DNA of 63,992 bases, counting the filler, from Candidatus Woesearchaeota archaeon (GTDB taxonomy: Archaea > Nanobdellota > Nanobdellia > Woesearchaeales > B72-G16), in assembly GCA_003650545.1 (NCBI GenBank). It is 4 parts of 4 records of this genome, joined end to end, with 100 filler letters (N's around TTAATTAATTAA, not from the genome) between each part and the next. Parts side by side here need not be neighbours in the genome. Positions count along the whole stretch, not along the records: positions 40,764 to 60,580 come from QMQO01000025.1; 3 more parts are not named here. One strand, given 5' to 3'. Numbering within the stretch: position 1 is the first letter of the stretch; the number at the start of each line of letters is the position of its first letter. Positions 42,841 through 57,766 of this stretch are shown piece by piece. The notes under the pieces were generated by a model. That model made no database searches. It saw nothing but the letters and a program-made list of their open reading frames with translations, and was not told the DNA's origin. The position numbers and the translations under genes are program-made.

Positions 42841-42841
42841 T

Positions 42842-43381
42842 TCATGCCACTCTCACATAAACCTGCGATTTAAGTCGTTCAATTGCTTTTAATGCCATTT
42901 CATAGAACATCATTGCTTTTTCTTTGCCCCGTGCAAGAGATCCATACGCTAATGATGCAGCAAGAAGCGTTGCAGCGTGACTTGCAATTTTAAATTCTGG
43001 CGTGTCGCTGGTGTAGCCGTAGGTGTATGTGATTTCAATGATTTTTTCGCCTGAATCAACAGTGTCGCTGAATTTAATCATTCCAACGTTATGATAAACG
43101 TAGTAGTCTTCGTTTTCAGTTTTCTGTTCACCATTGATTTTAAGGCTGGTTACATTGATGATCGGCTGATTATTCACGAAGATTTTATCGACGCCGCCAT
43201 CAAAATATTCGGTTGCGCTGGGCGGTGTTTCTCCATTTGCAGTGTCAACGAAAGTTTTGTTCGTCCAGTTCTTGATGAGGTGTTCGGCTTGATTAATAAT
43301 TGATTGTAGTGTAGTGTCGTCGATGACGTCGGCTTCTATGCCTGCGATTGCCCTTACATCACTAATTGTTGTTAACGTCAC
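42842..43381 (-). CDS. Head-tail adaptor
   Basis: TTISDVR start, EYFDG, PIINVTSL and ITYTYGY; directly after the MCP. Confidence 0.7.
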   Translation of the reverse strand: MTLTTISDVRAIAGIEADVIDDTTLQSIINQAEHLIKNWTNKTFVDTANGETPPSATEYFDGGVDKIFVNNQPIINVTSLKINGEQKTENEDYYVYHNVGMIKFSDTVDSGEKIIEITYTYGYTSDTPEFKIASHAATLLAASLAYGSLARGKEKAMMFYEMALKAIERLKSQVYVRVA

Positions 43382-43515
43382 TTCAAATCACCATTGAGCG
43401 TTTATAAAAATAGTGAAGGCTGGGCCGACGTGCTGCGGCCCATATAAATTCATCTACGCCGGGCGCCAATAAACCGGCGGATACTCACGTAAAACAGTGT
43501 TTGAGTTTCGCTTGC

Positions 43516-45837
43516 TTATGCAGTGATGATCTCAACGATTGCCTTGTCAAATAAAACGTCAACGCCAAACCTGTGAGTTGCAACGATCTTTAGCTGTCTC
43601 TTACCGATTTCTTTCTGTGTTTCTACTAGTAATTCGCGTTTTGGAGCTAGAACTACTGCGTCGCGCCTCATGAGAAAGGCGTGATAACAGGTGACTCCAC
43701 CAGCATTTTCAGTTGTTGGAACCTTGCTTGATAATACGATTGGTATGCCCATGATTGAGTCCATTACAACTTTTCCGCCAGCGACACCGGCCTTACTAGC
43801 ATCCTTAAACCATTGTAATGAATTATTTAAATCGTGCCATTGCTTTGGTGACAGTACGAGTACGAGGTCGCTTGGAGTTACATCATATCCATTATCGGCA
43901 ATAGTCTTAAGAGCTTTTAATACGAGGTCAGCGGTGAAAGTATCGGCAGAATCAATTGAGTCAACATCAGTTGCATCTCCACCATAAATTTCAGTTATAT
44001 TCGTATCAGCCTTGAGAGTTGACAGTATAACTTCGTCTTCCTTGAGCTTAGCGGCTTTAGCGAGGCCAGCATTTATTGCTCTTATAAGCTCTTCGCCGAG
44101 ATCCTCAATGTCTTGATAATCAATGGTGCCGACTAAACCGTATTCGTTCAATGTTACTTCAACTGCGCTTACAGTCCAAGTAGTATCGGATGGCTCAGTT
44201 CCCTTCGTGAGCTGAGCGAACTCTGGAACAGTTATTTTTCTTATTCTTACTCTATCGCCTTGAGTTACTTGAACTACTCTTACAGCGCTCCTTAAGTTTG
44301 CAATAAGTCCAATTGGCTCCGCTTCAATTTCAGTCTTCCACGTTACTTGAGTTACACCAGTGCCAATAGATACAGCTTCTCTAAGATCCTTGACTGTCTT
44401 TAGAATTGGATCCTTCTCTTCCATCACAACACCCTTTCCTGCCTTCTCTTCTACCTTCTCCATTTTCTCCTCACCCTCAACCTTTTCTACTTCTTTTTTG
44501 CCCCCCACAGATTCCACAGCCGACGTGGGGGCAACCGTCGGCTGCGGCTCCTCAAGTTGATGAGGAGCATGAACCTCGTCACTTACTTCAAGCATTTCCT
44601 TGAATTCTGGCGGCTCTTTGTCGAACTGCTCATAGTGTGCACGTAAATGCTCATAAACTGCCCTTCGATCCTTAGCTGGAATATTGACGCCGCCACGCGC
44701 ACCCATCAATGCAGCCATAGCCGCAGCAACGCCGCGCCAAACGACGACAAGTTTACCGTCGATCACGTCGTGATGCGGCAATTTGTATGAGCCGAAGTTT
44801 TCCGGATCATTCTCGTCATACCATGCAAATGCCATTCGATATTTTCGCCAATCAATCTTGTCTTTATCGCCGGATCCATCACTACTTGCCCATTTTCGTA
44901 TTCTTGTGATTGCAGCGGTTTTATCCCACTCTCGTTCTTCAGGTGCCTTCGGCGTTTTATGTTTTGGTGGAACGGCTTCAGCAACTTCTTTGTCATTATT
45001 GTAGTTTTCTAGGCTAATTGTAACGTTGACTTGGGCTTCTGGGCCGACATCAATGTTTGCTTGTGGCTCGGAGGCTGCTGGCTCAACCTCAATTTTCGGC
45101 TCTGGCTTTTCAGCAACTGTCGGTTTAGCTTCAATATTGGGTTCTTTCACTTCTTTCAGGGAAACTTCTTCCTTTTCTTTCCCTTTCTCCTCAACTTTCT
45201 CTTGTTTTTTCTCACTCATATTCTCACAACAAACAAGTTTTTCAATGACCATGATATTCGCATGTGGATCGCCGGGCACGGCGACAAGTGAAAGCTCACA
45301 AAAACGAAGATTACGCGGTACACGAATACCATCAAGATAATCTATAAGCTCATAATCAGCTGCAATACTTACATGCTTAATAACACCGGCCCGAATCTTA
45401 TCGGCAACCTCATCATCATAAATTTCAGCTTCAAAAACAATTGCCCGCTCATCTTCATCCCAATAAGCATTCACGACTTTGCCAACCGCATTATTCACGT
45501 CAACATGCTCCAAGTAAACCGGCACGCCAATGAGGCTTTGAGCCGCCTTTTTCAACTCAGTCTCTAAATATAAATTCCAGTTGCGAGTTGCACCGGCATG
45601 AATGGCATAGCCGCGAATCCTTAATGGCTTAACATCAAGACGAAACTTCTCAAATGATATTCGCCATTCTCTTCGAAATTTCTGGAGCTGCGGCTCAATT
45701 GGCTTTGTCTCGTCAAGCATATATTTGTTGAGCCACATGCGATAATATTCTTCACCTTTTTCTTCACCATATATTTCGATGAAGTTGCGATAAATTGTCT
45801 CAAAGTCGGGATGACGATTAGGCGGCATAAAACTCAC
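43516..45837 (-). CDS. Prohead protease / scaffold / HK97-fold major capsid fusion
   Basis: Protease motifs IRGYA, LEH, VSI and ELSLVAVPGDP; acidic linker; C-terminal MCP (LVLSPKQW, IMGIPIVLS, HRFGV). Confidence 0.85.
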   Translation of the reverse strand: MSFMPPNRHPDFETIYRNFIEIYGEEKGEEYYRMWLNKYMLDETKPIEPQLQKFRREWRISFEKFRLDVKPLRIRGYAIHAGATRNWNLYLETELKKAAQSLIGVPVYLEHVDVNNAVGKVVNAYWDEDERAIVFEAEIYDDEVADKIRAGVIKHVSIAADYELIDYLDGIRVPRNLRFCELSLVAVPGDPHANIMVIEKLVCCENMSEKKQEKVEEKGKEKEEVSLKEVKEPNIEAKPTVAEKPEPKIEVEPAASEPQANIDVGPEAQVNVTISLENYNNDKEVAEAVPPKHKTPKAPEEREWDKTAAITRIRKWASSDGSGDKDKIDWRKYRMAFAWYDENDPENFGSYKLPHHDVIDGKLVVVWRGVAAAMAALMGARGGVNIPAKDRRAVYEHLRAHYEQFDKEPPEFKEMLEVSDEVHAPHQLEEPQPTVAPTSAVESVGGKKEVEKVEGEEKMEKVEEKAGKGVVMEEKDPILKTVKDLREAVSIGTGVTQVTWKTEIEAEPIGLIANLRSAVRVVQVTQGDRVRIRKITVPEFAQLTKGTEPSDTTWTVSAVEVTLNEYGLVGTIDYQDIEDLGEELIRAINAGLAKAAKLKEDEVILSTLKADTNITEIYGGDATDVDSIDSADTFTADLVLKALKTIADNGYDVTPSDLVLVLSPKQWHDLNNSLQWFKDASKAGVAGGKVVMDSIMGIPIVLSSKVPTTENAGGVTCYHAFLMRRDAVVLAPKRELLVETQKEIGKRQLKIVATHRFGVDVLFDKAIVEIITA

Positions 45838-47240
45838 TCCTTAAACATAAACTCGAAAACAAGCGGAAACTGATCACTATACCACATTTTTGCCTTCGAA
45901 AGATCCCACTCGGCTTTAGACTTGTCAAATATGATTGCACAAACCCATCGTCGGCCGCCGGTGCCCGTGACTTTCGCAACCATAATTTTTATACCTTGAT
46001 TAGCGTCAATTGAATAGTATCTTATGCTTGACTTGTCAATCCGGTTAGGATCAACAAGAATAAGCATAACTTGTTTCGGTGTTTCAACCCACTTTGCACG
46101 ATAGCCGAGCGCCTCTTTAGTCTCAGCTTCAGTTTCTTCTTCAATTGGAAATCCCATTTTCTGAAGCCACTTGCGGGCCGTCGATGTGTTGATGATGCTT
46201 ATTTCTGGCTTGACGAGTTGTGCAATATCGTTAAGCGTTAATTCATCAAGTTTGGTGCGTGGGAAGCCCCAATTCAGACGCGGTACTTCAGTTAAATCAT
46301 AACCTTCAATGAGTGGCTTGAAAATTTCGCTTTCAACTTTACGCTTAATATATCGCTGTAAACCGGCAACATGGCGCTCAACGGCTTCAAGCATTGCTCG
46401 GGCCGACGCTTCAGTTGCATTACGCAAATAACTTAAGAGCGGCGCGCCTAAACCCTCAAAAATATTGCGTTCAAGATATTCAATAAAATCAGCAAATCTT
46501 AATCGCGGATCAATCTCAATAACCTCATGTTGAATGTCGCCGCTTACAATTGGATCTTCATCCGGATCTAAATTGTTAAGAACAATTTTGAGGCTTTCAA
46601 CACTTGCCTCATCGCCGCATTTCCAAATTACTTTAGGTGCAGCATAGCGGTGAATGATTTTTTCCATATCTTCATTAAATTGCTTCTTAATCTCCAAGAA
46701 TTTAAGAACGGGTTTAATCATTGAAATGCCGTAGGCTTTCGTGCCGATTTCAAGATATTTTAAATGCACGATTTCTTCAGGTTTGAATTGTATTTCGCGG
46801 CCCGCGACAAGCTGCACATATCCTTCAATAACACCGTGCTCGTCACGTTTTACGCGAATATTCGTTGACGGTAACAATTTAATGTTAAGGAGTTTTTTAC
46901 CGTCAAAAACTTTTTCGATATACGCGTTGCCATAAATGAGCATGTTGCGAGTTGCTCTAAGAAGTAAGCCGTCAAGATTTACTTTAGCTGCAAATTCATC
47001 GACAATCTGCTTTGCACGCTCATCTTCACATGAAGTGTAGTAGCCGACGCCGGCAACCATTTCAGCGATGAAGTCAACGGCGGCCCGCACAACCGGATCA
47101 TTCAAATAGTAATACTCGTAAGTGCTGGGATCATCTTCAGGTGGCTCACCATAGTATTTGAAGAGGCTTGCAGCTGAGTCAACAATGCCTTTTTGCTTTT
47201 TAATTCTGAAAAATTTCTTTACGCGCTCAATAAAACTCAA
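45834..47240 (-). CDS. Portal protein with extra C-terminal domain
   Basis: DPVVRAAVD, IYGNAY, FKPEEIVHLK and YGIS. Confidence 0.9.
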   Translation of the reverse strand: MSFIERVKKFFRIKKQKGIVDSAASLFKYYGEPPEDDPSTYEYYYLNDPVVRAAVDFIAEMVAGVGYYTSCEDERAKQIVDEFAAKVNLDGLLLRATRNMLIYGNAYIEKVFDGKKLLNIKLLPSTNIRVKRDEHGVIEGYVQLVAGREIQFKPEEIVHLKYLEIGTKAYGISMIKPVLKFLEIKKQFNEDMEKIIHRYAAPKVIWKCGDEASVESLKIVLNNLDPDEDPIVSGDIQHEVIEIDPRLRFADFIEYLERNIFEGLGAPLLSYLRNATEASARAMLEAVERHVAGLQRYIKRKVESEIFKPLIEGYDLTEVPRLNWGFPRTKLDELTLNDIAQLVKPEISIINTSTARKWLQKMGFPIEEETEAETKEALGYRAKWVETPKQVMLILVDPNRIDKSSIRYYSIDANQGIKIMVAKVTGTGGRRWVCAIIFDKSKAEWDLSKAKMWYSDQFPLVFEFMFKE

Positions 47241-47332
47241 CTTTTCTTCCTCACAAACGGATTTTTTGCTTTATCAATGACTGTTTTCTGTGACCTTAGA
47301 AACTTGAAGAAGCGCTTGAATTGCTTGTTCAT
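47237..47332 (-). CDS. 31-aa basic peptide between terL and portal
   Basis: MNKQFKRFFKFLRSQKTVIDKAKNPFVRKKS; its TGA overlaps the portal TTG. Confidence 0.45.
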   Translation of the reverse strand: MNKQFKRFFKFLRSQKTVIDKAKNPFVRKKS

Positions 47333-47365
47333 CTCATAAATTATAATTGTCATAAGACAAGTTTC
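47332..47365 (-). promoter_or_regulatory. 34-bp repeated motif, copy A (candidate late promoter/operator)
   Basis: 31/34 identical to 51908-51941; TTGTC-N4-GACAA palindrome followed by a TATA-like box. Confidence 0.6.
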
Positions 47366-48726
47366 TAGAAAATTTTCTTCGCCTTATCAACAAAAATTCG
47401 CGGCTTAGTAAATGCAGCATAAACAGCTAACGCGAAAGCCCAAAGCCGATCGTCATGCGTTCCAGCAGGATGATAAAATTTTATGCGGCCATCCTTAGTA
47501 AGCTCAAACTTCTCAACATTTAATTCAGCAATGAGATCCTTATCATACGGAATCTTAACTAAGCCTTCTTGCATCTTCGCTTTCAGTAAACTCATTATTT
47601 CCTCTTTACGCGGCAATGTTAAGGTAATGCCGGTGACGTTTGATAAGCCGGCCCGCTTCATATCCTCAGTAATATATTCGCCAACACCTGTAACATCAGT
47701 ATAGATTCGCCGCACAAATTTCCAGCGATCATAAAGCGTCTTTACATAACCGATGACTGAAGCATAAGGCGTTTCAAGTGGAAATCTATGTAAGTGAATA
47801 AGCTTAACAACATCATTCTCTTTTTCAACAACTGTAACAACTGAATAATCGACTTTCTTACCGAAGTCAATACCAATATAGAGATCTTTACTGGTTATAC
47901 GCGCATCAAACGAATAATAATCAAGCTCAGCATCAATACACTTAGCAATTAAGTCTTGCGTCAACCATGAATCTTCATCTTCAACAAATTCAGCTTCAAA
48001 CTCCATTTTGAAACGCTGTGCCGGCAACTGTCGTTTCATCTCCTCAATAAAATCAAGACTTACAAGGCCGCATTTTACAACTTCGCGCCAATCTAGGAAA
48101 TGTTTGCTAAAGTTTGGATCAATACACATTTTGTAGAAAACTGAGTCGGTGCCCCAAGGCGTTGAACTCACAATAAGCGTGCCATCCGTCGTGCTAAGCA
48201 TTGGATAAAGAACTGAATAAAAAATGTCTTCATCATCTTTGAAAAATGCGGCTTCATCTGTAATTACTTGATGAGCCGTATAACCTCGCAAAAGATGAAC
48301 CGAACATGGAAGCGCGACAATTTGAGATCCATTCTTAAACCTTATGACGGTTCGCAGCATTTTTAAAACAAGCTGTCGGCGAAGATCTTTAGGCAAGCTT
48401 AGTAAGAAGCCGTGAATCTTATCCATCATGATCATGCTTTGACGTTTTGATGGTGCAACAATAAGCGTTAAAGTTTTCGGGTGAGTAACTGCAAACCAAA
48501 TGGCGCGGGCTGCAATTGTCGTTGACTTACCGCTCTGACGCGGCCACTTCACAACAATACGCTTAGATTGATCCCGCAACAACTTTTCTTGATAAGGCAA
48601 CGGCTTAAAACCAAGAATCTTCACGCAAAACTCAACCGGATCACTCGGCAACTTAACACGCTTATATTGTTGTTTAAGCAATTTATCAATGATTTTTGTA
48701 AGTCGTTCAAGCTCGGTTCGACTCAT
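47365..48726 (-). CDS. terL: Terminase large subunit
   Basis: Walker A RQSGKS, Walker B ITDEAA, STP, and nuclease GIDFG and HDD. Confidence 0.95.
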   Translation of the reverse strand: MSRTELERLTKIIDKLLKQQYKRVKLPSDPVEFCVKILGFKPLPYQEKLLRDQSKRIVVKWPRQSGKSTTIAARAIWFAVTHPKTLTLIVAPSKRQSMIMMDKIHGFLLSLPKDLRRQLVLKMLRTVIRFKNGSQIVALPCSVHLLRGYTAHQVITDEAAFFKDDEDIFYSVLYPMLSTTDGTLIVSSTPWGTDSVFYKMCIDPNFSKHFLDWREVVKCGLVSLDFIEEMKRQLPAQRFKMEFEAEFVEDEDSWLTQDLIAKCIDAELDYYSFDARITSKDLYIGIDFGKKVDYSVVTVVEKENDVVKLIHLHRFPLETPYASVIGYVKTLYDRWKFVRRIYTDVTGVGEYITEDMKRAGLSNVTGITLTLPRKEEIMSLLKAKMQEGLVKIPYDKDLIAELNVEKFELTKDGRIKFYHPAGTHDDRLWAFALAVYAAFTKPRIFVDKAKKIF

Positions 48727-49334
48727 AAAAATCGCCTTAATTGTGATTGGTTTGTTAATTCGATAATTGCATTCTTAAAGTTTAGAAGATTTATTTTAAA
48801 CAATTCTTCGTTTGTTAATTTGTTTATTGGCCGAGTGTGCTTTTTCCATCCTTGCCATATCAAACCATTTTTGACGAAAAAAGACGGTATTGTCGTGTCA
48901 AATCCATCAAAATTTAAAATTATTTCCGGCTTCTTTCCCATCCAACCTAAAAACCAACGTTTTTTATCTTTTGTAAATTCTAAAAATTCATTTAATGAAT
49001 AATCACGTGTAACCAATCCTTTTAAACATGGTTTTCGTGGAAAAGCAACCCACTCAAAATTTTGAGCAAAATTAAGTTCACTTTTAAAATGAAGCGGAAA
49101 AATCCAATTTATATGTGAAAATTTTTTAAGAAGCCATAATAAATCATAACGAAAATCAGGATAAACTACAAATTTAACTTCATTACCATATTCAACTAAA
49201 ATTTTAAGTAGTTTCTTCACATTTGGTTTACCAAAACGAACAAATTCATTGTCAACAAACTCCGGAAAAGTAAGAAAACCAAGCTCTTTCACATATTTTA
49301 TTTGATAATAATAACATGGTATTGCAATAATCAT
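48723..49334 (-). CDS. TGT/DpdA-like TIM-barrel protein (AT-rich insert)
   Basis: Ordered motifs FVDN, VVYPD, IFPLH, WVAF, WFLG and GFDTT parallel the transglycosylase barrel strands. RBS GGTGTGA precedes the ATG at 49334. Confidence 0.5.
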   Translation of the reverse strand: MIIAIPCYYYQIKYVKELGFLTFPEFVDNEFVRFGKPNVKKLLKILVEYGNEVKFVVYPDFRYDLLWLLKKFSHINWIFPLHFKSELNFAQNFEWVAFPRKPCLKGLVTRDYSLNEFLEFTKDKKRWFLGWMGKKPEIILNFDGFDTTIPSFFVKNGLIWQGWKKHTRPINKLTNEELFKINLLNFKNAIIELTNQSQLRRFL

Positions 49335-49413
49335 AATCACACCTAGAGTATTTTGGTTGGAATATTCTTGTGAGACGCTCAAGTTCACTTCGACTCATAA
49401 AATCACCAGAAAT

Positions 49414-49522
49414 ATTGGGCCGGAGGGCCTGAATCTGTGATGAAAACCAGGCTAGATGATTGGTGATTTAAGGCTTAGCAACCGAGGCACCTGCAGCCAG
49501 CGGGATACCCTTCCGGCCCAAT
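49414..49522 (+). ncRNA. Candidate box C/D guide sRNA 2 inside an 11-bp outer stem
   Basis: GTGATGA-12 nt-ATGA-ttg-GTGATTT-12 nt-CCGA (49437-49485), enclosed by ATTGGGCCGGA/TCCGGCCCAAT. Confidence 0.6.
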
Positions 49523-49636
49523 TCAATATTTTCTTAGAACGTAGTATAAATTTATTCTGGTTGGAATATGCTGATGAGAATGTGAAGAGATCCCTCCCTT
49601 CATTGAGGCCCTACATGCCTCTCTGGTGAGGATCAT

Positions 49637-49918
49637 CTATTCCATCATCTCTTCGAGGAGCTTTAGTTTTTCTTTGAGTAATTCGAGTTGCTTCTTTATG
49701 TCTTGCTCGTCATAGCTGTTGAGTATTGAGTTTATTGTTTGAGCAATATATGCAGCAAGCCTTGCCCACTTTTCCCTTCGCTTCACATTGAGTCTTTTAT
49801 CTGTTGAGTAGCGATAACAAATGTCAAAAAGCTCCTTAAGTTTCTCAATTATTTTTTCACGTTCAAGCTGCGTGTCAATAGCCATTAAACTCTCAAATAC
49901 GCTTTTCATTTCACTCAC
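49637..49918 (-). CDS. Putative terminase small subunit
   Basis: Small helical protein with a coiled-coil end upstream of terL; positional call only. Confidence 0.5.
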   Translation of the reverse strand: MSEMKSVFESLMAIDTQLEREKIIEKLKELFDICYRYSTDKRLNVKRREKWARLAAYIAQTINSILNSYDEQDIKKQLELLKEKLKLLEEMME

Positions 49919-49919
49919 C

Positions 49920-50096
49920 TTAAATCACCTTCTTCACTTTTCGCTTTACTTCGCGGATTTGCTCGCGCACTGTTTCAATTTCGCTTTCATAGTCGAAGTC
50001 GAAGGCCTGCCAAATTTTTAGCTGCATTTCCGGCTTATCCATCGGGTTATAGAATTTTTCGAATAGTCTTAATGCGAGGGGTTTTCGAACTCCCAT
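49920..50096 (-). CDS. 58-aa hypothetical protein (below ORF-track cutoff)
   Basis: GGGGAG RBS; MGVRKPLALRLFEKFYNPMDKPEMQLKIWQAFDFDYESEIETVREQIREVKRKVKKVI; fills the gap exactly. Confidence 0.65.
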   Translation of the reverse strand: MGVRKPLALRLFEKFYNPMDKPEMQLKIWQAFDFDYESEIETVREQIREVKRKVKKVI

Positions 50097-50758
50097 TCAA
50101 CTACTCCCCGCGTCAACTTATCATATTTTTTAAGTTTCTTCACGTCTTCAAAATACTCTTGATCATCAAACCATGCAAAACCATCATAAATAATGCCGCG
50201 ATAACCGCGTTCTGCTGCTGCTTTATCGATGATCGGCAATGGATTAGGGCCGGCAGTAGTTTCTATAATACATATTTTATTCTTATATGTCGTTTCAACC
50301 CACGCATGAAAACCTAAGAACTGTTTTGTTTTTGCGTCGATGATCGCGCCTAACACAACTTTACACGGTATGTTTTTCGCTAAGAGTAGTGAAGCAAGAA
50401 GTAATGATGTGTCAATACATAAGCCGTATTTGACTCTGAGGGTTTGGGCCGGCTTCAACCAGCCATATTTTGAGCTTAATTCGAAATGATAGATTGGGCC
50501 GGCTGCTTTGAAGATTAAGACTTTCCGCTCAGTTGACGGCTTACCTTTCCACGTGAATGGATATTTGATTAGGCGGCATACGGTTCGTGTTGCTTCTTCG
50601 ATGATCCGGTCGGGATCTTTATGTCTTATGCGTTTTACAATGTCTAGTACGGCAGGATTATCTTTTTGAATGTAGTCAAAAATATAGTCGAGTTCGCTGA
50701 CAAGGCCGTAATTAACGGTGATTGGCTTTGAATTGCGAGTATAACGTTTAAGCGTCAT
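50069..50758 (-). CDS. Transglutaminase-like cysteine protease
   Basis: GLCIDTSLLLASLL, HAWVE and IIETT (Cys-His-Glu triad). Start placed at MTLKR. Confidence 0.8.
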   Translation of the reverse strand: MTLKRYTRNSKPITVNYGLVSELDYIFDYIQKDNPAVLDIVKRIRHKDPDRIIEEATRTVCRLIKYPFTWKGKPSTERKVLIFKAAGPIYHFELSSKYGWLKPAQTLRVKYGLCIDTSLLLASLLLAKNIPCKVVLGAIIDAKTKQFLGFHAWVETTYKNKICIIETTAGPNPLPIIDKAAAERGYRGIIYDGFAWFDDQEYFEDVKKLKKYDKLTRGVVEWEFENPSH

Positions 50759-50762
50759 GTTT

Positions 50763-50978
50763 TCACACTTCAAAAAGTTTTGCAAATAATACAATGAAAC
50801 TGAGAAGAATAACGAAAATCGTCAAAAGTAGATAAGCTGAAATTGTAATGTAAACTAAGAAGATGATCCAGCCGGGCAATGATCCAGGCCGAAAAACATC
50901 AATTAAAATAAGTGCAATCAGCAAAATAAAGAATGCAAGCGTGTTAAAGTCAAATTCAACTTTCCTATCACTTTCCAT
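50763..50978 (-). CDS. Small two-TM membrane protein
   Basis: Two hydrophobic helices. Confidence 0.65.
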   Translation of the reverse strand: MESDRKVEFDFNTLAFFILLIALILIDVFRPGSLPGWIIFLVYITISAYLLLTIFVILLSFIVLFAKLFEV

Positions 50979-51008
50979 GATGATCCCACCAAAATGGTGG
51001 TGGGGGGT

Positions 51009-51080
51009 TGGGCCGGCTCAGCTAGCGACCAAGTTCATCATCGATTATTCAGCTTTGGGAGGATCATCATCGCCGGCCCA
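51009..51080 (-). ncRNA. Box C/D guide sRNA 1
   Basis: TGGGCCGGC-G-ATGATGA-TCCTCCCAAAG-CTGA-ATAATCG-ATGATGA-ACTTGGTCGCTAG-CTGA-GCCGGCCCA: four consensus boxes, 11- and 13-nt guides, a 9-bp terminal stem and a 3-nt k-turn bulge; intergenic. Confidence 0.9.
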
Positions 51081-51090
51081 CAAGAACCTG

Positions 51091-51318
51091 CTATTTCTTT
51101 GCTTCTTCGGCTTTTGCGTCAAAGTATGCTTTCATAAACATGGCATCAAGTGGCAGTAATGGTGAAATGAGCATTGTAATGTCTTGAACATTAAAGCCTT
51201 TCAAAAGCCCGACAAACAATGCTGCAAATGTGCCGCCAGTCCAAGCTACTGCAAGCCAGAATCTGTAATCTCGCTCTTTCTTCGTCAATTTTACTTCTTC
51301 TTTTACTTCTTTACTCAT
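51091..51318 (-). CDS. Holin-like small membrane protein
   Basis: Two TM segments and a charged C-terminus; resemblance only. Confidence 0.5.
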   Translation of the reverse strand: MSKEVKEEVKLTKKERDYRFWLAVAWTGGTFAALFVGLLKGFNVQDITMLISPLLPLDAMFMKAYFDAKAEEAKK

Positions 51319-51929
51319 TTAAACCACCTTTCCAAAATCTTACGAGTGTAAATATATGCAAAGAATGTGAAAGTTAGGATCGTGCCGAAAGTCGAGATGA
51401 GTGGCAGCCAATCGTAAAGCCAATCCAAACCTGCAAACGCAAGCATCTCGCAGAATGCGTAAATGCCTTGTGCAAACGCGTTTGTCATTAATGCGAATTT
51501 ATCGTCAATGTCTTGGCCGGGCCGCAATGCAAGAATCATATAGAGAATGAAAACCGAACCGCCGCCCATAAATGCAACAGCGATGATTCGATTAAGCGAT
51601 TCAGGCCATGCAGTTGGGAAAACAGCGGCGCCATGCGGCATTAATTTAATGTAGCCGTCGCCGCCAAGCCAGCGTAAAACAACGAGATGACCAAACTCAT
51701 GTATCGGCAAAGTCATGAGCCAAAAAATAAGATATACAAATGTAAATGAAAGAATCTTGAAAAGCGTGGGCCGACGTGCACAAGCAAGATAAAGTTGCAC
51801 TCGCAAATCACGTCGCTGTAAATATAAAGTTAAAGCGATGCCACCGACAATTAATGAAGTAAGCAATTCGAAAACAATGGGATTCAAGGCGGATCCTCTC
51901 ACAAAATTCTCACAAAATATAGTTGTCAT
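51315..51929 (-). CDS. M50-like membrane zinc metalloprotease (start may be TTG near 51887)
   Basis: PIHEFGH within a TM helix and AFMGG. Confidence 0.7.
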   Translation of the reverse strand: MTTIFCENFVRGSALNPIVFELLTSLIVGGIALTLYLQRRDLRVQLYLACARRPTLFKILSFTFVYLIFWLMTLPIHEFGHLVVLRWLGGDGYIKLMPHGAAVFPTAWPESLNRIIAVAFMGGGSVFILYMILALRPGQDIDDKFALMTNAFAQGIYAFCEMLAFAGLDWLYDWLPLISTFGTILTFTFFAYIYTRKILERWFK

Positions 51930-51941
51930 AAGACAAGTTTC
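51908..51941 (-). promoter_or_regulatory. 34-bp repeated motif, copy B
   Basis: Heads the leftward late gene block; matches 47332-47365. Confidence 0.6.
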
Positions 51942-52117
51942 ACGTCACAGCAATATGCAGTGAATCATCATTTTACTCATCACGTGCAGCAGAAAATGAA
52001 GCTTAGAACCGAGATAGAAATGTCAAAAACACTTAAATAACGAAAATAATAAAATATTTTATGAACCCCAGCGGTTTAAAGAACCGCGGGGAAATTGAAA
52101 AACAAGGTGAAAATTAA

Positions 52118-52447
52118 ATGTCGATGGCGGCGGATGAGGCCGCAACAATTATTATGCGAGCAGCATCACTCTATCATAAAGCAATTGAAGATCAGCTTAA
52201 TTGCCTCGCAGAAAATGACGTTGATTTTACAGTTTCATATACTGCATTAAAAAATGATCGCGGCCACTGGAGCTTAAAACTTAATGATCCTTCAAATGTT
52301 AATGAAAAATTTGTTAAACAAATTCTCTATTTGATGCGGGATGCAGCATATAATTTTGCAGCAATAATTAGAAGCCTCGGCTTCAACACTGACGTAAAAA
52401 TAAGCAGCAAAAAAGGAATCTTAATTATTTGGAAAAAAGTTAAGTGA
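52118..52447 (+). CDS. Hypothetical viral protein
   Basis: GGTGA RBS, upstream TTAAATA box and a leader hairpin at 52066-52091. Confidence 0.7.
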   Translation: MSMAADEAATIIMRAASLYHKAIEDQLNCLAENDVDFTVSYTALKNDRGHWSLKLNDPSNVNEKFVKQILYLMRDAAYNFAAIIRSLGFNTDVKISSKKGILIIWKKVK

Positions 52448-53126
52448 ATTTTGTTTTAAGTTCTTCAAGCTGCTTTATTGCTTCTTCAATGTCACTTAAA
52501 CTTTTAATTGTGAATGTAAGTGTTATTGCTTTCTCTCCTGCTTCTTTAATCTTGAAGTTTGGTGTTTTAATTATCTTTTTGAAGTATAGTGTTGAGTCGC
52601 GGTAATCTGTTTCACGTCCACAGTCTTCTGCTGTTTTTGCATAGAAATTATCTTGTAAATCATGTTTGATTAAGCGAACTTTTATTCTTGCGAGTTGTCG
52701 GCCTGCCTCTGATCCACGTGGATATCTTCTTGATCCTCTGTAAGCCCAGCATACGCGAATTGCTTCAGCAGTATCTGAATCTTCAATACTATCAATGTCT
52801 AGAACGAGATAATTCTCAGTTTCTTTTATTACTTTGACTTTCACTGCAACCAGCTGATAAGTAACTTTATGAACTTCACTTGCTGCTCCAAGAACATCAA
52901 TGATGTCGGCCGGCAGAATTTCATTAACATTTAACTCAACTTCCTCAACGCTAGGCTCGCTAAAAACTATTAGTTTTGCTTTTTCCAGCTCTTCTTTTGA
53001 TCCGCGGAAAATAAAGCCTCCATAACGTCCTTCACTTGCATATCTTATTTCATCATTCTCCATCAAAAAAGTAAGACACTTCTTTTCTGAAGGAAGTCGA
53101 AACACGAGTTTTTTAAGAGGCTCCAT
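52440..53126 (-). CDS. Hypothetical viral protein
   Basis: 228-aa ORF with its own TATA box and GGTGG RBS. Confidence 0.75.
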   Translation of the reverse strand: MEPLKKLVFRLPSEKKCLTFLMENDEIRYASEGRYGGFIFRGSKEELEKAKLIVFSEPSVEEVELNVNEILPADIIDVLGAASEVHKVTYQLVAVKVKVIKETENYLVLDIDSIEDSDTAEAIRVCWAYRGSRRYPRGSEAGRQLARIKVRLIKHDLQDNFYAKTAEDCGRETDYRDSTLYFKKIIKTPNFKIKEAGEKAITLTFTIKSLSDIEEAIKQLEELKTKFT

Positions 53127-53255
53127 CTTTTTCCACCCAGTAGAAAATTTAGAACAAGAAGTATATAAACTTTTCTATTCAGGTTCCCTTTGAATAGAAC
53201 TGATTCCGAAAAATTTAAATACAACTACAACCACATTTTCTACCGGGTGGAAATC

Positions 53256-53459
53256 ATGAATGAAATGGTAAAAATTAAACTACCATATTTTCCATTCATA
53301 AAATATGTACCATATAAGCAGTTGCTCAATGAAGTTAGAGGTACATTTCTTGAACAAGCTTTAAAACAAATAAAGGAAACTGGGCGAAAATATGCAGAAG
53401 TAAAGTGTCCTTGTTGTGGCAGAATCATTAGAATTTCTATCGAAGAAGTTGAGAGGTGA
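53256..53459 (+). CDS. Small hypothetical protein with CPCC motif
   Basis: Start reassigned to the ATG after the GGTGG RBS. Confidence 0.65.
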   Translation: MNEMVKIKLPYFPFIKYVPYKQLLNEVRGTFLEQALKQIKETGRKYAEVKCPCCGRIIRISIEEVER

Positions 53460-53465
53460 TTTATA

Positions 53466-53684
53466 ATGCAAGTTCAAGTTTTTTCTTTGGAGCGGCTTCG
53501 TGAGTTTGTTGAGTCGCAGCGTTGCAGCTGGTGTGGCGGTCGGCTGAAAATGAAGTATTATGATCATCCAAATGGGGTTGAAACTGAGGTTGGCAAAGTC
53601 TGGGTTTATGGTGAATGTCAGAAATGCGGGTACCAGTGGGCGTTATGGAAACTCTTAAGGAGAAAAAGTAGAAGTGTTACGTGA
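53466..53684 (+). CDS. Zinc-finger protein
   Basis: CSWC..CQKC; GAGGTGA RBS. Confidence 0.75.
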   Translation: MQVQVFSLERLREFVESQRCSWCGGRLKMKYYDHPNGVETEVGKVWVYGECQKCGYQWALWKLLRRKSRSVT

Positions 53685-53916
53685 AGGTGGAAGAGTGATG
53701 AGTGAGCGTAAATTGAAGTCAATTAAAGTTGAGTTTAATGTGTGGCAGGAGCTTGTGCGGCTTCAAGGTGAATTGCAGAAAAAACAAGGTAAGCGAGTGT
53801 CTATGAGTGACACAATACAATATTTATTAGATAGATATTATATAACAAGCAGTAAAAAAGTTAGCGATAGTTATACAAAATCCGGCGGCGATGACAATTA
53901 CGTTGAAGTCACTTAA
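53674..53916 (+). CDS. RHH/antitoxin-like DNA-binding protein
   Basis: KSIKV..VWQEL..SMSDTIQYLL pattern. Confidence 0.65.
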   Translation: MLREGGRVMSERKLKSIKVEFNVWQELVRLQGELQKKQGKRVSMSDTIQYLLDRYYITSSKKVSDSYTKSGGDDNYVEVT

Positions 53917-54277
53917 TTTTCATTTTTCTTTTTTGTTTTTCTAAGTCTAGTGCTGCTTTTATTCTGAAGTTGCCTTGCTCATCTTTGACGATTGAAAGTG
54001 ATCTTACATGTTTTGAGTTTCTTCGTCTTGCTTGTGCAACCCGCCACAAATACCGCATCTTAATTCTATTCTTCTTCACATAATCTTGCAGCCACCGCCG
54101 CTTATATTCGCGGCGAAAACGCTTTTGACACTCATCACATCTAGTTGCCGGCCCACGTTTCCTAAAGATTCTAAAACATTCGCGGCAAAGCCGGCCCAAA
54201 ACAACAACCAAAATGTATCTAACCATCACACATTCAATATCACGGATTTTCTTATGAACTTCCTTTTCAGTTCTCAT
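53909..54277 (-). CDS. Basic zinc-finger protein
   Basis: CREC..CDEC followed by an Arg-rich helix. Confidence 0.65.
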   Translation of the reverse strand: MRTEKEVHKKIRDIECVMVRYILVVVLGRLCRECFRIFRKRGPATRCDECQKRFRREYKRRWLQDYVKKNRIKMRYLWRVAQARRRNSKHVRSLSIVKDEQGNFRIKAALDLEKQKRKMKIK

Positions 54278-54450
54278 TTATCCTCACGCTCCTTTACTTT
54301 TCTTTTGAATTGAAGAATTGCCCAGCCTTTTTTGCGAAAACAAATTGTTTTGATGTGTTTTTCTTCAATCCATGACAAACAAAACCATTTCCTACCTATA
54401 CCATCAAATTCATATAATTCAATATCTTTGTGTTTCATTATCAACCGCAT
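54274..54450 (-). CDS. 58-aa hypothetical protein (below cutoff)
   Basis: MRLIMKHKDIELYEFDGIGRKWF...; ATGA overlap with the next gene. Confidence 0.55.
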   Translation of the reverse strand: MRLIMKHKDIELYEFDGIGRKWFCLSWIEEKHIKTICFRKKGWAILQFKRKVKEREDK

Positions 54451-54731
54451 TTTCCTACACCCTTTTTTTCTTGTTGTTTGATGAGTTGCTCAATGATTTC
54501 GTTTTGAACGTCGCGGTAGAAGTCAGCGCCAAAGATTGCATGCACAAGGCCGCATTTTGGGCATACGAGTTCTTTTAAATGTATTGCGCCGATGTATTCA
54601 ACGACTTTAAGTTTTGCGCCGCATTCAATGCAGTGTGAAAGTCGAATGTCAAGCTGCGGCGGTAAATGTGAGTCTATAACGACTTTATACATCCAGCCGG
54701 TCGATGCTACGAGGATCATGCGCTTACCCAA
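54441..54731 (-). CDS. Zinc-ribbon protein
   Basis: CIEC..CPKC. Confidence 0.65.
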   Translation of the reverse strand: MGKRMILVASTGWMYKVVIDSHLPPQLDIRLSHCIECGAKLKVVEYIGAIHLKELVCPKCGLVHAIFGADFYRDVQNEIIEQLIKQQEKKGVGKCG

Positions 54732-55015
54732 ACCCTATACCTCCATTCATGTGATGATGATCTTGCATTACAAATTTCATAATACATGATCTTAGAATGC
54801 TGCTGCACACGCTGAAGCTTACCAATAATAACTTCAAGATCACGCAAAAGCTCCCGCCTCACATCATCAAGCTCACTCATAACATTCCCAAGCTCATCAA
54901 CCTGAAGATTTTCAACTGAACTTTTTAGATCATCAAGCAACTCAACATAAAACTGCGAAGACTTCCACACCCTAAACAATCTCTCAAGCAGTAAACCAAT
55001 ATTCTGAGATTTCAA
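54716..55015 (-). CDS. Coiled-coil hypothetical protein
   Basis: Overlaps both neighbours in the operon. Confidence 0.6.
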   Translation of the reverse strand: MKSQNIGLLLERLFRVWKSSQFYVELLDDLKSSVENLQVDELGNVMSELDDVRRELLRDLEVIIGKLQRVQQHSKIMYYEICNARSSSHEWRYRVWVSA

Positions 55016-55809
55016 AATGATACCCCCTCCCCCTTTTTCATATTATTTTTATTTTCACATCTATCACAATGTTCTCGAAATTCACAAGCAACATAGCATT
55101 GCCAACGCATAGACTCATTTTGCTTCGCTTCGGCCGGCGGCAACGTCTTCGTAATAATAAATTCATGAAGCTGCTTCACACGATCAATAAGCATATCAAG
55201 TCGATCACGATCAAACACGACTGGACAAACCTTAATCTGCAACGTAGGCTTCTCAACATAAACAATTGCGCCATAACGGCAGCGCATCGCATACAAGTAA
55301 ATCATAAGCTGATTCACATGCTCAGAATAAGGTAATTCAACATCAACATGCTCCTTACGCTCACGATCCCACTTTCTAAATGACTTTATGCTTTTCACTT
55401 CAATGACAATTGGCTCTTTAAATCCGCGAAGCAGAATCATATCGTCGTAGCGACCGCGGATCTGAATATCATCAATAATAATTGCGAATTCACCTTCATT
55501 GTGCAGCAACTCAATCTTCTCACTTTTCTCCAAAACTTCTTTAATGAAGCTGTGAATAATGTTGCCGGCGTGAAAGATCCTGAGCTTTTCACTTGAAACG
55601 GGTTTCGGCGGTGAAGTATAAAGATAAAAGAGCCGCCTTAAACAATACGAAATCATTGATGGATAGTAAACGCCAACAACTAATGGTCGTTCTTCACGCC
55701 TTAAATATTCATCGATTGCTTGATTAATCGTGCCTTCAAGATCAAGTGATAAGAAGCTATTTTCGGCGAGTTCGGGCCGGCTGTATGGAATTAATATGAC
55801 TTCACTCAC
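55012..55809 (-). CDS. Cas4-like PD-(D/E)XK nuclease (solo)
   Basis: PSMISYCLR, GRYD, IEVKS, QLMIY and C-terminal CxxxCxxxxxC Fe-S cysteines. Confidence 0.85.
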   Translation of the reverse strand: MSEVILIPYSRPELAENSFLSLDLEGTINQAIDEYLRREERPLVVGVYYPSMISYCLRRLFYLYTSPPKPVSSEKLRIFHAGNIIHSFIKEVLEKSEKIELLHNEGEFAIIIDDIQIRGRYDDMILLRGFKEPIVIEVKSIKSFRKWDRERKEHVDVELPYSEHVNQLMIYLYAMRCRYGAIVYVEKPTLQIKVCPVVFDRDRLDMLIDRVKQLHEFIITKTLPPAEAKQNESMRWQCYVACEFREHCDRCENKNNMKKGEGVSF

Positions 55810-55810
55810 G

Positions 55811-55919
55811 TTATCATCACTCCTTCTTGAATTATCATCACAGTGAGTGATGGTAATACGCGTGAAAAGTGATGATAATCTACGGAAAAGTGATGATGAG
55901 TGATGATAAGTGATGATAA
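55811..55919. repeat. Iteron cluster 1 (seven GTGATGATAA-like 10-mers)
   Basis: Reverse copies at 55811 and 55832; forward copies at 55847, 55869, 55890, 55900 and 55910. Confidence 0.85.
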
Positions 55920-55932
55920 TCTGTGAGAAACA

Positions 55933-56139
55933 CTAAGCATTTTCTTCACTCTCCTCAAAATATTCACATGAAGCACAATCACAATGCTTACAAACTTCGT
56001 CAGTTATCCACTGTCGATCACAGATGATCTCGTCCAATATTTTGCAGCGGGTTAGCAGTAATCCGCCTGAAGTTACGTGTTCAGCGTGTTTGCATTTAAA
56101 GCAAGGAGGTTCAAAATCCTCAAAATCTTCAGACTTCAT
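55933..56139 (-). CDS. Cys-rich small protein
   Basis: PCFKC plus five further cysteines. Confidence 0.65.
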   Translation of the reverse strand: MKSEDFEDFEPPCFKCKHAEHVTSGGLLLTRCKILDEIICDRQWITDEVCKHCDCASCEYFEESEENA

Positions 56140-57766
56140 TTTTATTCCACTCCATAAGTTTTAAGTAGAGATTACCGGCCCGACGCTCTAAGAATAGTTT
56201 ACCCTCATCGATGAGTTCTTCGATGATTGGATCGGGGTTTGCTAGTCCGTTGAGTGCACAGGTGTTCAGCAATTGTCGATATTCTATGCCTTCCGGCCGG
56301 TGTTTCTCTATGAGTGTGATGATCCAGCGCTTAAAACTTAATTTTTCTAGTGTTTTCTCTGTATTACCATCACTCATCATCACTTCCATTGTTTTATCAT
56401 CACTCGTTATCATCACTTTTTCCGGCGTTATCATCACAGGATGTGATGATAAAAACAGGTCTAGTGATGATGGAATGTAGCGGCGTGCAAGTCGAACTAT
56501 AAGTTTTTCATCGTATTTAATGGCGATTCGACTGTCGTCGTTACTCATTCGCATTTTCTTGAAGCCAAGCTTCTTCAAAATTTTGCCAAGCTGTGTAGGT
56601 CGCATTTGATCTTTTTCGTCTCGATTCATATTGATTTGATCAAGAATAGTTTGTAATGGTAATTTGTTTTTCTCGACGAGATCTTTACATTTGATGATTG
56701 CGTCGATGACTTCAGCTTCAATTGTTGTTCGTTCTTCTTCACGTATTATTGTTGCTAGGCTTTCACCATATTTAATCAAATTTTGTTTTACGTCGGCCGG
56801 CGTCACAGCGAGCGGTGCAATGAATAATTCAGTTAGGCGGCCGTTCTCACCTATCCGTACGATTTGATCCTCAGTTACGTTAAAGTCATCTTCAATTAGT
56901 TTTTGTATGCGGTATCGTAACAGTTTGCTGCGGAGATTGGCGGCCCAGTCAAAATCAAGCATAATCTTCACTTGTCGCACGGCGCGGCTCATATTAATTA
57001 TGAAGCATCTTGACTGAAATGTCGGTGCTAAAAGAGTTGTGCATGCAACTGCCTTGAAGCCAAACACGTCATAAAGGCCGAGTTCAAGTTTATTTTCACC
57101 AACTTTTTCAACTCGTATTGCACATTGTCCGCGTCGATATCCAGCGTTTAGGAGTGCCATGACTTCAAGCATGTCGCTGCGATTATAGATTTCAGCTTCA
57201 TCAAGAATGATTGTTGGGTGCCATGCTTCACATGCGCGGAATAATCCGGCTGGTCGAATGCTTGTTGACATTAAGCCGCGATAACTAAGTTGCCACAAAA
57301 CTTCTAGGCAGCGCGTTTTACCCGAGTTGAGTGGGCCGATGAAAAACAGGTAAGGTACTACATTGAATTTTTCGGGGATCCACGTCGCCATGATCCAGCT
57401 CGCCATAAGCGCGTAATGCTCCTTCTCGCTAAAATCAATATGCTGATAAACATAATCATAGATTTCTTGCCACAACTCATCTTCATTAACGCGATCAACC
57501 GGCGGCTTCGGAATAGGCGGCCAAGGCAGCTTCTTCAAAGCAACCTCATTAATCTCATAGCCATTTTCATCAACACCGAGATAACGTACTGCAGGCCGCT
57601 GCACATGCAAAACAAACTTATCACGCTCTCCACGCACAAAATAAGCTTCACAATAAGCGTATTGACCATCATCACACATTACTTGCTCAAACAGAAACAT
57701 ATTCCGCTGATCAAAATAACCTGGCGAATACTTTACAATAACCTTCTCACGACTATTACGCCTCAT
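56129..57766 (-). CDS. P-loop AAA+/helicase-like replication protein with C-terminal wHTH
   Basis: GPLNSGKT, ILDEAE, LLNAGY and the QSRC arginine finger. Confidence 0.75.
   Translation of the reverse strand: MRRNSREKVIVKYSPGYFDQRNMFLFEQVMCDDGQYAYCEAYFVRGERDKFVLHVQRPAVRYLGVDENGYEINEVALKKLPWPPIPKPPVDRVNEDELWQEIYDYVYQHIDFSEKEHYALMASWIMATWIPEKFNVVPYLFFIGPLNSGKTRCLEVLWQLSYRGLMSTSIRPAGLFRACEAWHPTIILDEAEIYNRSDMLEVMALLNAGYRRGQCAIRVEKVGENKLELGLYDVFGFKAVACTTLLAPTFQSRCFIINMSRAVRQVKIMLDFDWAANLRSKLLRYRIQKLIEDDFNVTEDQIVRIGENGRLTELFIAPLAVTPADVKQNLIKYGESLATIIREEERTTIEAEVIDAIIKCKDLVEKNKLPLQTILDQINMNRDEKDQMRPTQLGKILKKLGFKKMRMSNDDSRIAIKYDEKLIVRLARRYIPSSLDLFLSSHPVMITPEKVMITSDDKTMEVMMSDGNTEKTLEKLSFKRWIITLIEKHRPEGIEYRQLLNTCALNGLANPDPIIEELIDEGKLFLERRAGNLYLKLMEWNKNEV
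56364..56473. repeat. Iteron cluster 2 inside the replication gene
   Basis: Reverse copies at 56364, 56374, 56394, 56407 and 56428; forward copies at 56443 and 56464. Confidence 0.85.

Follow-up and report, generated by a model that had tools for sequence, protein, structure and literature searches.

The window analysed here is a stretch of 63,992 bases from an assembly of Candidatus Woesearchaeota archaeon (GCA_003650545.1), in which four contigs are joined by linkers of 44 N, TTAATTAATTAA and another 44 N (20507-20606, 40664-40763 and 60581-60680). In archaeal and eukaryotic cells, box C/D guide RNAs count as housekeeping genes. The first-pass annotation of this DNA had proposed that C/D guide genes lie here on viral DNA, and this proposal held up: two such small RNA (sRNA) genes, named sRNA1 and sRNA2 below, could be recognized on the third contig by their boxes and by an Rfam match, and the same contig carries genes of a head-tail virus. 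The contig and the parts of both genes are listed below, with the boxes and guides read from the sequence; N+5 denotes the target nucleotide opposite guide base five, counted upstream from box D or D′.

40764-60580, strand not applicable: viral contig 3, 19,816 bp, GC 0.405, annotated with Pfam and PHROGs, carrying both sRNA genes
51010-51079, minus strand: sRNA1, canonical double-guide box C/D sRNA (Rfam match, box layout and fold)
51072-51079, minus strand: 5′ arm of the sRNA1 terminal stem, GGGCCGGC, one base before the C box (sequence and fold)
51064-51070, minus strand: sRNA1 C box, ATGATGA
51053-51063, minus strand: sRNA1 D′ guide, TCCTCCCAAAG, 11 nt; expected target CTTTGGGAGGA, whose first G is the N+5 nucleotide
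51049-51052, minus strand: sRNA1 D′ box, CTGA
51035-51041, minus strand: sRNA1 C′ box, ATGATGA
51022-51034, minus strand: sRNA1 D guide, ACTTGGTCGCTAG, 13 nt
51018-51021, minus strand: sRNA1 D box, CTGA
51010-51017, minus strand: 3′ arm of the sRNA1 terminal stem, GCCGGCCC, then AA (sequence and fold)
49414-49522, plus strand: sRNA2, box C/D sRNA with degenerate internal and D boxes (boxes, fold and inverted repeat I16, 93% complementary)
49437-49443, plus strand: sRNA2 C box, GTGATGA
49444-49455, plus strand: sRNA2 D′ guide, AAACCAGGCTAG, 12 nt, whose complement is CTAGCCTGGTTT
49456-49459, plus strand: sRNA2 D′ box, ATGA
49464-49469, plus strand: sRNA2 C′ box, TGATTT
49470-49481, plus strand: sRNA2 D guide, AAGGCTTAGCAA, 12 nt, whose complement is TTGCTAAGCCTT
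49482-49485, plus strand: sRNA2 D box variant, CCGA

The sRNA1 gene has the layout ATGATGA / 11 nt / CTGA / 7 nt / ATGATGA / 13 nt / CTGA, and its terminal stem of 8-9 bp is retained in the fold. It matched the Pyrococcus C/D model of Rfam (snoPyro_CD) over the full length of the model with 42.1 bits (cut-off 45, E 6.3e-7), and the other Rfam matches at this place were mostly further C/D families. The gene fills a 112-nt gap between two open reading frames (ORFs) on the same strand, 51091-51318 and 50763-50978. Its start lies 11 nt past the stop codon of the upstream ORF which, together with the run of ORFs on the same strand, suggests co-transcription and subsequent processing.

The layout of sRNA2 is GTGATGA / 12 nt / ATGA / 4 nt / TGATTT / 12 nt / CCGA. 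All four GA dinucleotides required for two kink-turns are present, and the sequence would allow the A at position 1 of D′ to pair with the U at position 6 of C′, where canonical boxes pair C with G. The terminal stem has 13-14 bp (arms 49414-49427 and 49509-49522) and is separated from the boxes by 9 nt on the 5′ side and 23 nt on the 3′ side, which is unusual. Located within a 248-nt gap, sRNA2 is antisense to its flanking ORFs. The A/T-rich element ATAAAAT (49393-49399) precedes it by about 20 nt, and downstream follows a T-run (49532-49535) inside TATTTTCTT (49529-49537). Given this orientation and these two elements, sRNA2 may be a transcription unit of its own. An origin of sRNA2 as an antisense tRNA remnant was also considered and rejected, since on the minus strand an anticodon-like segment comes before a D-loop-like one, whereas a tRNA has them the other way round.

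The four target strings listed in the first-pass annotation were found in the window exactly as written, namely CTAGCGACCAAGT at 51022-51034, CTTTGGGAGGA at 51053-51063, CTAGCCTGGTTT at 49444-49455 and TTGCTAAGCCTT at 49470-49481 (+ strand). They are the complements of the guides, those of sRNA1 being on the minus strand and those of sRNA2 on the plus strand, and each lies between boxes in the correct order. The single span that had been drawn around them, 49437-51070, does run from the C box of sRNA2 to that of sRNA1, but it includes about 1.5 kb of unrelated ORFs.

When the window was searched with a regular expression for the box layout, three places were found, whereas 100 dinucleotide shuffles gave 0.08 on average and never more than 2; the third match, caused by the repeats of the GTGATGATAA type within the primase gene, is spurious. 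Both genes are intergenic and are closed by one and the same GC-rich stem, GGGCCGG/CCGGCCC. As for the features of archaeal C/D sRNAs, D′/C′ boxes with a short loop and a terminal helix were present in both, and the guide spacers, expected at about 12 nt, measure 11 and 13 nt in sRNA1 and 12 nt each in sRNA2. A C box RUGAUGA near the 5′ end with a D box CUGA near the 3′ end was found in sRNA1 and only in part in sRNA2, which has CCGA. Judged by these sequence features, both box C/D sRNA genes are real.

The 7-mer GGGCCGG is the most enriched one of the viral contig, with 17 copies (41805-60531), about 31 times the expectation from composition, and it is absent from the other 44 kb of the window. 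Four copies make up the terminal stems of both sRNAs; the thirteen solo copies, twelve of which lie within ORFs, occur in all three codon phases and often as TTGGGCCGGCT.

From archaeal tRNA patterns, both sRNA2 guides had been read as complementary to tRNA-Ser(GCU), one to its D-loop and one to its anticodon loop, in a register pointing to C16 and position 36. A genome collection of 596 Gb was scanned with the pattern CTAGCCTGGT, a gap of 5-14, and GGCTTGCTAAGCC; this pattern comprises the first ten target bases for each spacer, the D part being preceded by three bases that the anticodon stem of the tRNA requires. The scan returned 27 loci, compared with about 0.17 calculated by chance, and all of them were archaeal (Thermoproteati) and had an 8-nt gap. 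The loci belong to Methanomethylicus, Methanosuratincola, other Methanomethylicia, metagenome-assembled genomes (MAGs) of Thermoproteota and “Nitrososphaerota”, two single-cell “Crenarchaeota”, a Marsarchaeota MAG and a “Thaumarchaeota” MAG. ARAGORN assigned 26 of the 27 matches to tRNA-Ser(GCU) genes; the one left uncalled (L025) has an identical D-arm and anticodon arm.

Within these genes the D′ spacer of sRNA2 forms 10 bp with the D-loop segment C12-U20, while the D spacer pairs with U32-C41 over 10 bp (18/27) or with U32-U42 over 11 bp (9/27). The 20 bases of pairing in all 27 loci follow from the construction of the pattern. Both duplexes begin directly beside box D′ or D, and the N+5 pair is Watson-Crick in each. 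Applied to the real genes, whose D-loop carries an additional base (17a), the N+5 rule points to C16 and to the third base of the anticodon, U36, so that both the target and the register proposed earlier for sRNA2 are borne out. On the basis of these alignments, sRNA2 is a predicted dual guide for a single tRNA, tRNA-Ser(GCU), with C16 and U36 as the predicted sites.

The two spacers differ in specificity. The D spacer is specific to tRNA-Ser(GCU), whereas the D′ spacer also pairs over 10 bp, at the same loci, with 3/3 tRNA-Val, with 1 intron-containing tRNA and with 16/16 tRNA-Pro(UGG) with one G-U. No pairing was seen with the 7 Lys-type tRNAs or the 1 tRNA-Arg of the 27 loci. The D-loop guide likewise fits other tRNAs having the CUAGCCUGGU D-loop.

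Some further observations were made at these loci. Neither proviruses related to the contig (tblastn with 11 viral proteins) nor rRNA genes (four conserved motifs) were found at the 27 tRNA loci. In 16 of them a tRNA-Pro(UGG) gene lies 0.1-7.4 kb from the tRNA-Ser(GCU) gene, mostly on the same strand (e.g. L019, 9990-10430), and in 7 loci an intron-containing Lys-type tRNA is found about 8 kb from tRNA-Ser(GCU), an arrangement that is conserved tRNA gene synteny in Methanomethylicia. In three loci (L016, L018 and L022), the acceptor stem and discriminator base of tRNA-Val equal GGGCCGG plus the A that follows its complement in both sRNAs.

For sRNA1, 34 intron-free annotated tRNAs of halovirus HGTV-1 were used as the test set, which is heterologous; the 27 loci had no tRNA-Gln. 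Among these 34 tRNAs, the sRNA1 D guide paired best with the tRNA-Gln(CUG) D-arm, over 10 contiguous pairs of which one is G-U and with N+5 at C16; the next best partner had 8 pairs, three of them G-U. The tRNA-Gln D-arm with one G-U pair named in the first-pass annotation was thus reproduced on a real tRNA-Gln gene of archaeal type, but one that does not come from the host lineage. With the D′ guide only letters of the anticodon loop paired in HGTV-1, 7 bp with UUUGGGA of Pro(UGG) (N+5 at G35) and 6 bp with CUUUGG of Gln(UUG) (N+5 at G36). The proposed match to the Gln(UUG) anticodon loop is thereby reduced to six loop nucleotides, and the Pro(UGG) alternative, with seven in HGTV-1, fails in the 16 Thermoproteati genomes, because the loop of tRNA-Pro(UGG) is CUUGGGC in all 16 and pairs with the sRNA1 D′ guide over only 5 bp. 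No target of 8 bp or more was found for the D′ guide in the window, the 55 tRNAs of the loci, the HGTV-1 tRNAs or E. coli rRNA.

When the window was searched for perfect complements of any guide, only the opposite strand of that guide itself was found, and one-mismatch matches were at chance level. In the full text of papers, the guide strings returned only unrelated primers among the matches listed. By its sequence sRNA1 is a canonical guide RNA, for which the tRNA-Gln D-loop is a plausible target; a target set of C16 in a tRNA-Gln-type D-loop plus the anticodon loop of either tRNA-Gln(UUG), at G36, or tRNA-Pro(UGG), at G35, is less certain. The wider claim that all four guides are antisense to tRNAs in matching register thus stands for both sRNA2 guides and, with moderate support, for the D guide of sRNA1, but not for its D′ guide.

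The minus strand of the viral contig encodes a tail tube protein, tail terminator, head-tail adaptor, protease-capsid fusion, portal and TerL (a connector is also annotated). After TerL come small ORFs, a Cas4-like PD-(D/E)XK nuclease, a 545-aa primase-helicase-like protein and an Mre11-like phosphoesterase. A terminal repeat, an integrase and a tail-fibre module were all not found on the contig, and the viral genome is therefore incomplete. Neither L7Ae, Nop5 and fibrillarin nor any other Nop-domain protein is encoded on it (31 ORFs by Pfam, 38 by PHROGs), and no tRNA genes were found in the window.

The closest TerL in the phage collection is that of halovirus HGTV-1, with 29.6% identity, and all 1103 matching records lie below 60%. 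Relatives at 55-68% identity are abundant in a large protein collection, the named ones coming from Bathyarchaeia, Bathyarchaeota, Nitrososphaerota or Thermoprotei MAGs, and several of these sit on contigs of 190 kb to 1.7 Mb. An identical TerL is encoded on a contig of 23.6 kb. These relatives suggest that the virus is a member of a widespread group associated with Bathyarchaeia-type archaea, and its host is most likely of the Bathyarchaeia type.

The neighbouring contigs bear on how this virus came to stand in the assembly. Contig 1 (1-20506, GC 0.465) carries a bacterial-looking polysaccharide cluster with a Wzi-like capsule assembly protein and sugar transferases. Contig 2 (20607-40663, GC 0.328) has housekeeping genes of archaeal type, and its CTP synthase (PyrG) has named relatives in Woesearchaeota, Nanoarchaeota or DPANN at 64-71% identity. 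This contig ends (40573-40663) in what looks, by its N-terminal motif, like the first 30 codons of an IS110-family transposase. Contig 4 (60681-63992) encodes decarboxylase subunits. The four contigs come from a mixed bin, and the placement of the viral contig among Woesearchaeota-like sequence is probably a binning accident. Identifying the host from provirus flanks, as had been suggested, leads nowhere here: the flanks are N linkers, and the neighbours look like different organisms, one bacterial-looking and one Woesearchaeota-like. An integrated provirus was rejected, as both flanks of the viral contig are contig joins and not host DNA with att repeats; the 101-nt “repeat” found on either side of it is nothing but the linker.

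Given the gene content and the pairing described above, we think it probable, though with clear reserve, that the 19.8-kb contig represents part of a head-tail virus genome, with a Thermoproteati (TACK) archaeon as the host, and carries two C/D guide genes that would methylate host tRNAs, without C/D protein genes of its own. After transcription the sRNAs would fold so that the C/D and C′/D′ boxes form kink-turns, which L7Ae, Nop5 and fibrillarin of the host would bind. The spacers would then pair with unfolded or nascent host tRNA, and fibrillarin would 2′-O-methylate the N+5 nucleotide. We infer these steps, from the gene to the methylated tRNA, from the known mechanism of the C/D family.

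The surroundings of sRNA2 matter for the weighing of this reading, as the gene is bracketed by an imperfect direct repeat (85%) of family D16:

49349-49375, plus strand: 27-nt imperfect direct repeat, left copy
49553-49579, plus strand: 27-nt imperfect direct repeat, right copy

The first 39 nt of the TerL gene region are also duplicated (82%; 48692-48730 and 49364-49402), just upstream of ORF 48723-49388. The bracketing repeats and the duplicated TerL start indicate that the region between the packaging module and the small ORFs has been rearranged.

Several observations weigh against two virus-borne guides for host tRNAs. No Rfam match reached the gathering threshold in the scan of the window, with sRNA1 just below its cut-off, and sRNA2 has the non-canonical D box CCGA and a best Rfam match of only 16.6 bits to sR20 (cut-off 44, E 2.7). 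Since the archaeal C/D families of Rfam are genus-specific, a near miss is to be expected for a new lineage. Neither spacer of sRNA1 forms at least 8 bp (maximum 7 bp) with the 55 tRNAs of the 27 loci, and its D guide finds tRNA-Gln in a halovirus and not in the host lineage. The last two bases of the sRNA2 D′ guide are unpaired in 27/27 tRNA-Ser(GCU) genes, and a full 12+12 match to sRNA2 occurs in no genome of the collection. None of the 27 matched genomes is named Bathyarchaeia, so that the tRNA and TerL evidence agree only at the level of the kingdom Thermoproteati. The common inverted-repeat ends of both sRNAs (GGGCCGG...CCGGCCC) and the 27-nt direct repeats around sRNA2 would fit a selfish mobile element.

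The main rival explanation builds on these ends and repeats. Both loci could be mobile C/D modules resembling miniature inverted-repeat transposable elements (MITE-like), or recently captured host sRNAs, that sit in variable viral regions without benefit to the virus and whose tRNA guides reflect a cellular origin; we regard this as a serious possibility, yet an unlikely one. The position of sRNA2 beside the duplicated TerL start, in a rearranged region, and its degenerate internal boxes point the same way. There is also a precedent: a study on Pyrobaculum (PMC6009581) describes a MITE-like C/D element of P. calidifontis with 15 copies, conserved inverted-repeat flanks, degenerate D′/C′ boxes and orphan or non-conserved tRNA targets, and there sR131 is predicted to act at C16. 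The viral loci resemble these elements in a C/D core between inverted-repeat flanks, which here are common to the two copies, in degenerate internal boxes (in sRNA2), in tRNA or orphan guides and in their location in rearranged regions. They differ in that only two full copies, without a common guide sequence, are present in 19.8 kb, that the boxes of sRNA1, internal ones included, are fully canonical, and that the flanks form a GC clamp of 7-8 bp with the sequence of a tRNA acceptor stem; the viral contig also has thirteen solo GGGCCGG half-sites without an sRNA core. The uninterrupted 10-11 bp of both sRNA2 spacers to one tRNA also argues for current selection or very recent capture, and a cellular donor was not seen, as a strict C/D regular expression found nothing in the 27 Thermoproteati loci, a small sample of about 480 kb. 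A different target for sRNA1 has likewise to be weighed. Most archaeal C/D guides target rRNA. In the same way sRNA1 might act on the rRNA of the host, like the small nucleolar RNA (snoRNA) of Epstein-Barr virus, v-snoRNA1, which is reported to direct methylation of host rRNA (PMC13597479). The D guide of sRNA1 does find a best match of 10 pairs including one G-U in E. coli rRNA (23S nucleotides 4-16), and no tRNA target of sRNA1 is confirmed in a genome of the host lineage. This match is, however, about what chance gives in 5.8 kb, the 5′ end of 23S rRNA differs in six Pyrobaculum species, and none of six core strings of the two sRNA1 targets occurs in 16S/23S alignments of six Pyrobaculum species and E. 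coli (PMC6009581 supplement), where gaps could hide some. As the same D guide fits the tRNA-Gln D-arm in the register of sRNA2, we consider an rRNA target improbable.

The sRNA1 gene could, moreover, be mainly a cis-regulatory leader, its kink-turns binding L7Ae and its C box and D′ spacer pairing with the ribosome-binding site (RBS) and start codon of the ORF 60 nt downstream, thereby controlling translation. A 17-nt inverted repeat with 88% complementarity (15/17) indeed links 51054-51070, covering the C box and D′ guide, with 50977-50993, GGUGGGAUCAUCAU(G) of ORF 50763-50978. Besides, an anti-Shine-Dalgarno-like CCUCC is present in the D′ spacer, sRNA1 is enclosed by an operon-like run of ORFs with which it shares its strand, and L7Ae-dependent translational control has been proposed for archaea (PMC5539422). 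But in the minimum free energy fold of the 141-nt region the terminal stem of sRNA1 is kept and the RBS falls in a separate local hairpin, the guide proper contributes only 6 contiguous bp from N+1, and such inverted repeats are common (79 pairs in the contig), so a leader seems to us rather far-fetched. Chance resemblance, with neither locus giving a functional RNA, would explain why both score below the Rfam gathering thresholds. It is very hard to reconcile with three layouts where 0.08 are expected, with an E value of 6.3e-7 for sRNA1, with 27 double targets of sRNA2 where about 0.17 are expected, 26 of them in one tRNA species, and with terminal stems common to both loci, and we give it almost no credence.

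Virus-borne tRNA guides, which we continue to favour, can be set beside several known systems. As to tRNA guides of cells, one third of the C/D sRNA families of Pyrobaculum are predicted to target tRNAs, at 23 positions that include C15, G16/C16, G18, G19, C32, C34/U34, A35, C36 and C39, and dual guides to one tRNA are rare (PMC6009581). In Sulfolobus acidocaldarius the C/D machinery acts on G18 and U34 of tRNA-Gln(UUG), with both methylations observed, while in Pyrococcus furiosus C16 of tRNA-Gln and U35 of tRNA-Asp are predicted but undetected (PMC7668247). Cellular guides of S. acidocaldarius, P. furiosus and Pyrobaculum (sR46, sR61, sR122, sR126, sR131) resemble the viral sRNAs in their boxes, spacers of about 12 nt and terminal stem, and among them a double guide to the D-loop and anticodon loop of one tRNA is found as well, with C16, A35 and C36 as precedented sites. 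The viral pair differs by its location on a virus contig, by unusually long, GC-rich terminal stems and, in sRNA2, by the D box CCGA; its predicted sites lie two nucleotides from the pair observed in Sulfolobus (16 vs 18, 36 vs 34). The targeted tRNA positions are less exotic than the first-pass annotation implied, as cellular sRNAs are predicted or shown to act at C16, G18, U34, A35 and C36 in Pyrobaculum, Sulfolobus and Pyrococcus. The chemistry would therefore be ordinary, as would the combination of a D-loop target with one in the anticodon loop, and the viral location new.

Among viruses, v-snoRNA1 of Epstein-Barr virus, reported in 2009 and shown in 2026 to direct host rRNA methylation (PMC2718842, PMC13597479), is likewise a virus-encoded C/D guide that uses a host fibrillarin ribonucleoprotein (RNP) on an RNA of host translation. 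It belongs to a eukaryotic herpesvirus, is intron-encoded and has rRNA targets, in contrast to the predicted tRNA target of an archaeal tailed virus here. The TIGR-Tas systems of phages and archaeal viruses share virus-borne dual-spacer guide RNAs and an evolutionary link to the C/D RNP through the Nop domain, but consist of 5-15 tandem units with spacers of about 9 nt, an adjoining Nop-domain Tas gene and a DNA target (PMC12045711). Assignment of sRNA1 and sRNA2 to TIGR-Tas was rejected, since they occur singly, at a distance of 1.5 kb from each other, and have canonical C/D boxes, spacers of 11-13 nt and no Nop-domain protein. Phage tRNAs and genes for tRNA repair or modification also act on the host tRNA pool, HGTV-1 having 36 tRNA features in 42266-53420 of its own record. 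These supply or repair tRNAs through protein enzymes or extra tRNA genes, whereas here a guide of about 60-100 nt would redirect a host enzyme.

As to their purpose, the viral sRNAs would be auxiliary genes through which, during infection, certain host tRNAs receive a ribose methylation that is either new or reinforced. Such methylation would stabilise or shield tRNAs required by the virus, rather than inactivate them. Serine is encoded by AGU or AGC in 108 of 235 cases (46%) in 22 viral ORFs, so that the virus would itself be harmed if tRNA-Ser(GCU) were disabled; a stabilising or protective role is therefore favoured over sabotage. By its chemistry, a ribose methyl at position 36 would be expected to block nucleases that require that 2′-OH to cut between 36 and 37. 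It is conceivable, though doubtful, that the virus reprogrammes host tRNAs by methyls at position 36 and at C16, by the archaeosine site, of tRNA-Ser(GCU) and probably tRNA-Gln(UUG), either for resistance to defence nucleases or for decoding shifted towards viral genes. This functional story is speculation, and so are the roles suggested in the first-pass annotation, namely a block to anticodon nucleases, retuned decoding or sequestered tRNAs; if it is true, RNA-guided counter-defence or translation takeover, so far unknown in prokaryotic viruses, would be at hand.

No description of a C/D sRNA in an archaeal virus was found by full-text searches of literature outside subscription journals, the main text of a Bathyarchaeia virus survey (PMC10848311) mentions neither sRNAs nor C/D boxes, and the Epstein-Barr virus snoRNA is the only published viral C/D example found. 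If a tailed archaeal virus does carry guides aimed at tRNAs, viruses would be able to redirect a host RNA-modifying enzyme with an RNA of about 60-100 nt, and RNA-guided tRNA modification would take its place among the conflicts over tRNAs known between viruses and hosts. Such guides also point to a new means of host assignment for archaeal viruses that are uncultured, in which guide spacers would name the tRNA of the host lineage as CRISPR spacers name a virus.

Some other features of the viral contig were noted. The major capsid protein and an N-terminal prohead-protease-like region form a single ORF of 773 aa (43516-45837). A 34-nt repeat with an A/T-rich core, 91% identical, lies before the portal gene (47332-47365) and before ORF 51315-51929 (51908-51941), and may be a shared viral promoter. 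The contig's longest inverted repeat, with 46-nt arms of 76% (53130-53175 and 53208-53253), is situated between the divergent ORFs 52440-53126 (minus) and 53190-53459 (plus) and is a candidate regulatory region. Clusters of direct and inverted repeats of the GTGATGATAA type, at 55801-55929 and 56375-56472, just past and within the 3′ end of the gene for the 545-aa primase-helicase-like protein, are probably the iterons of a replication origin.

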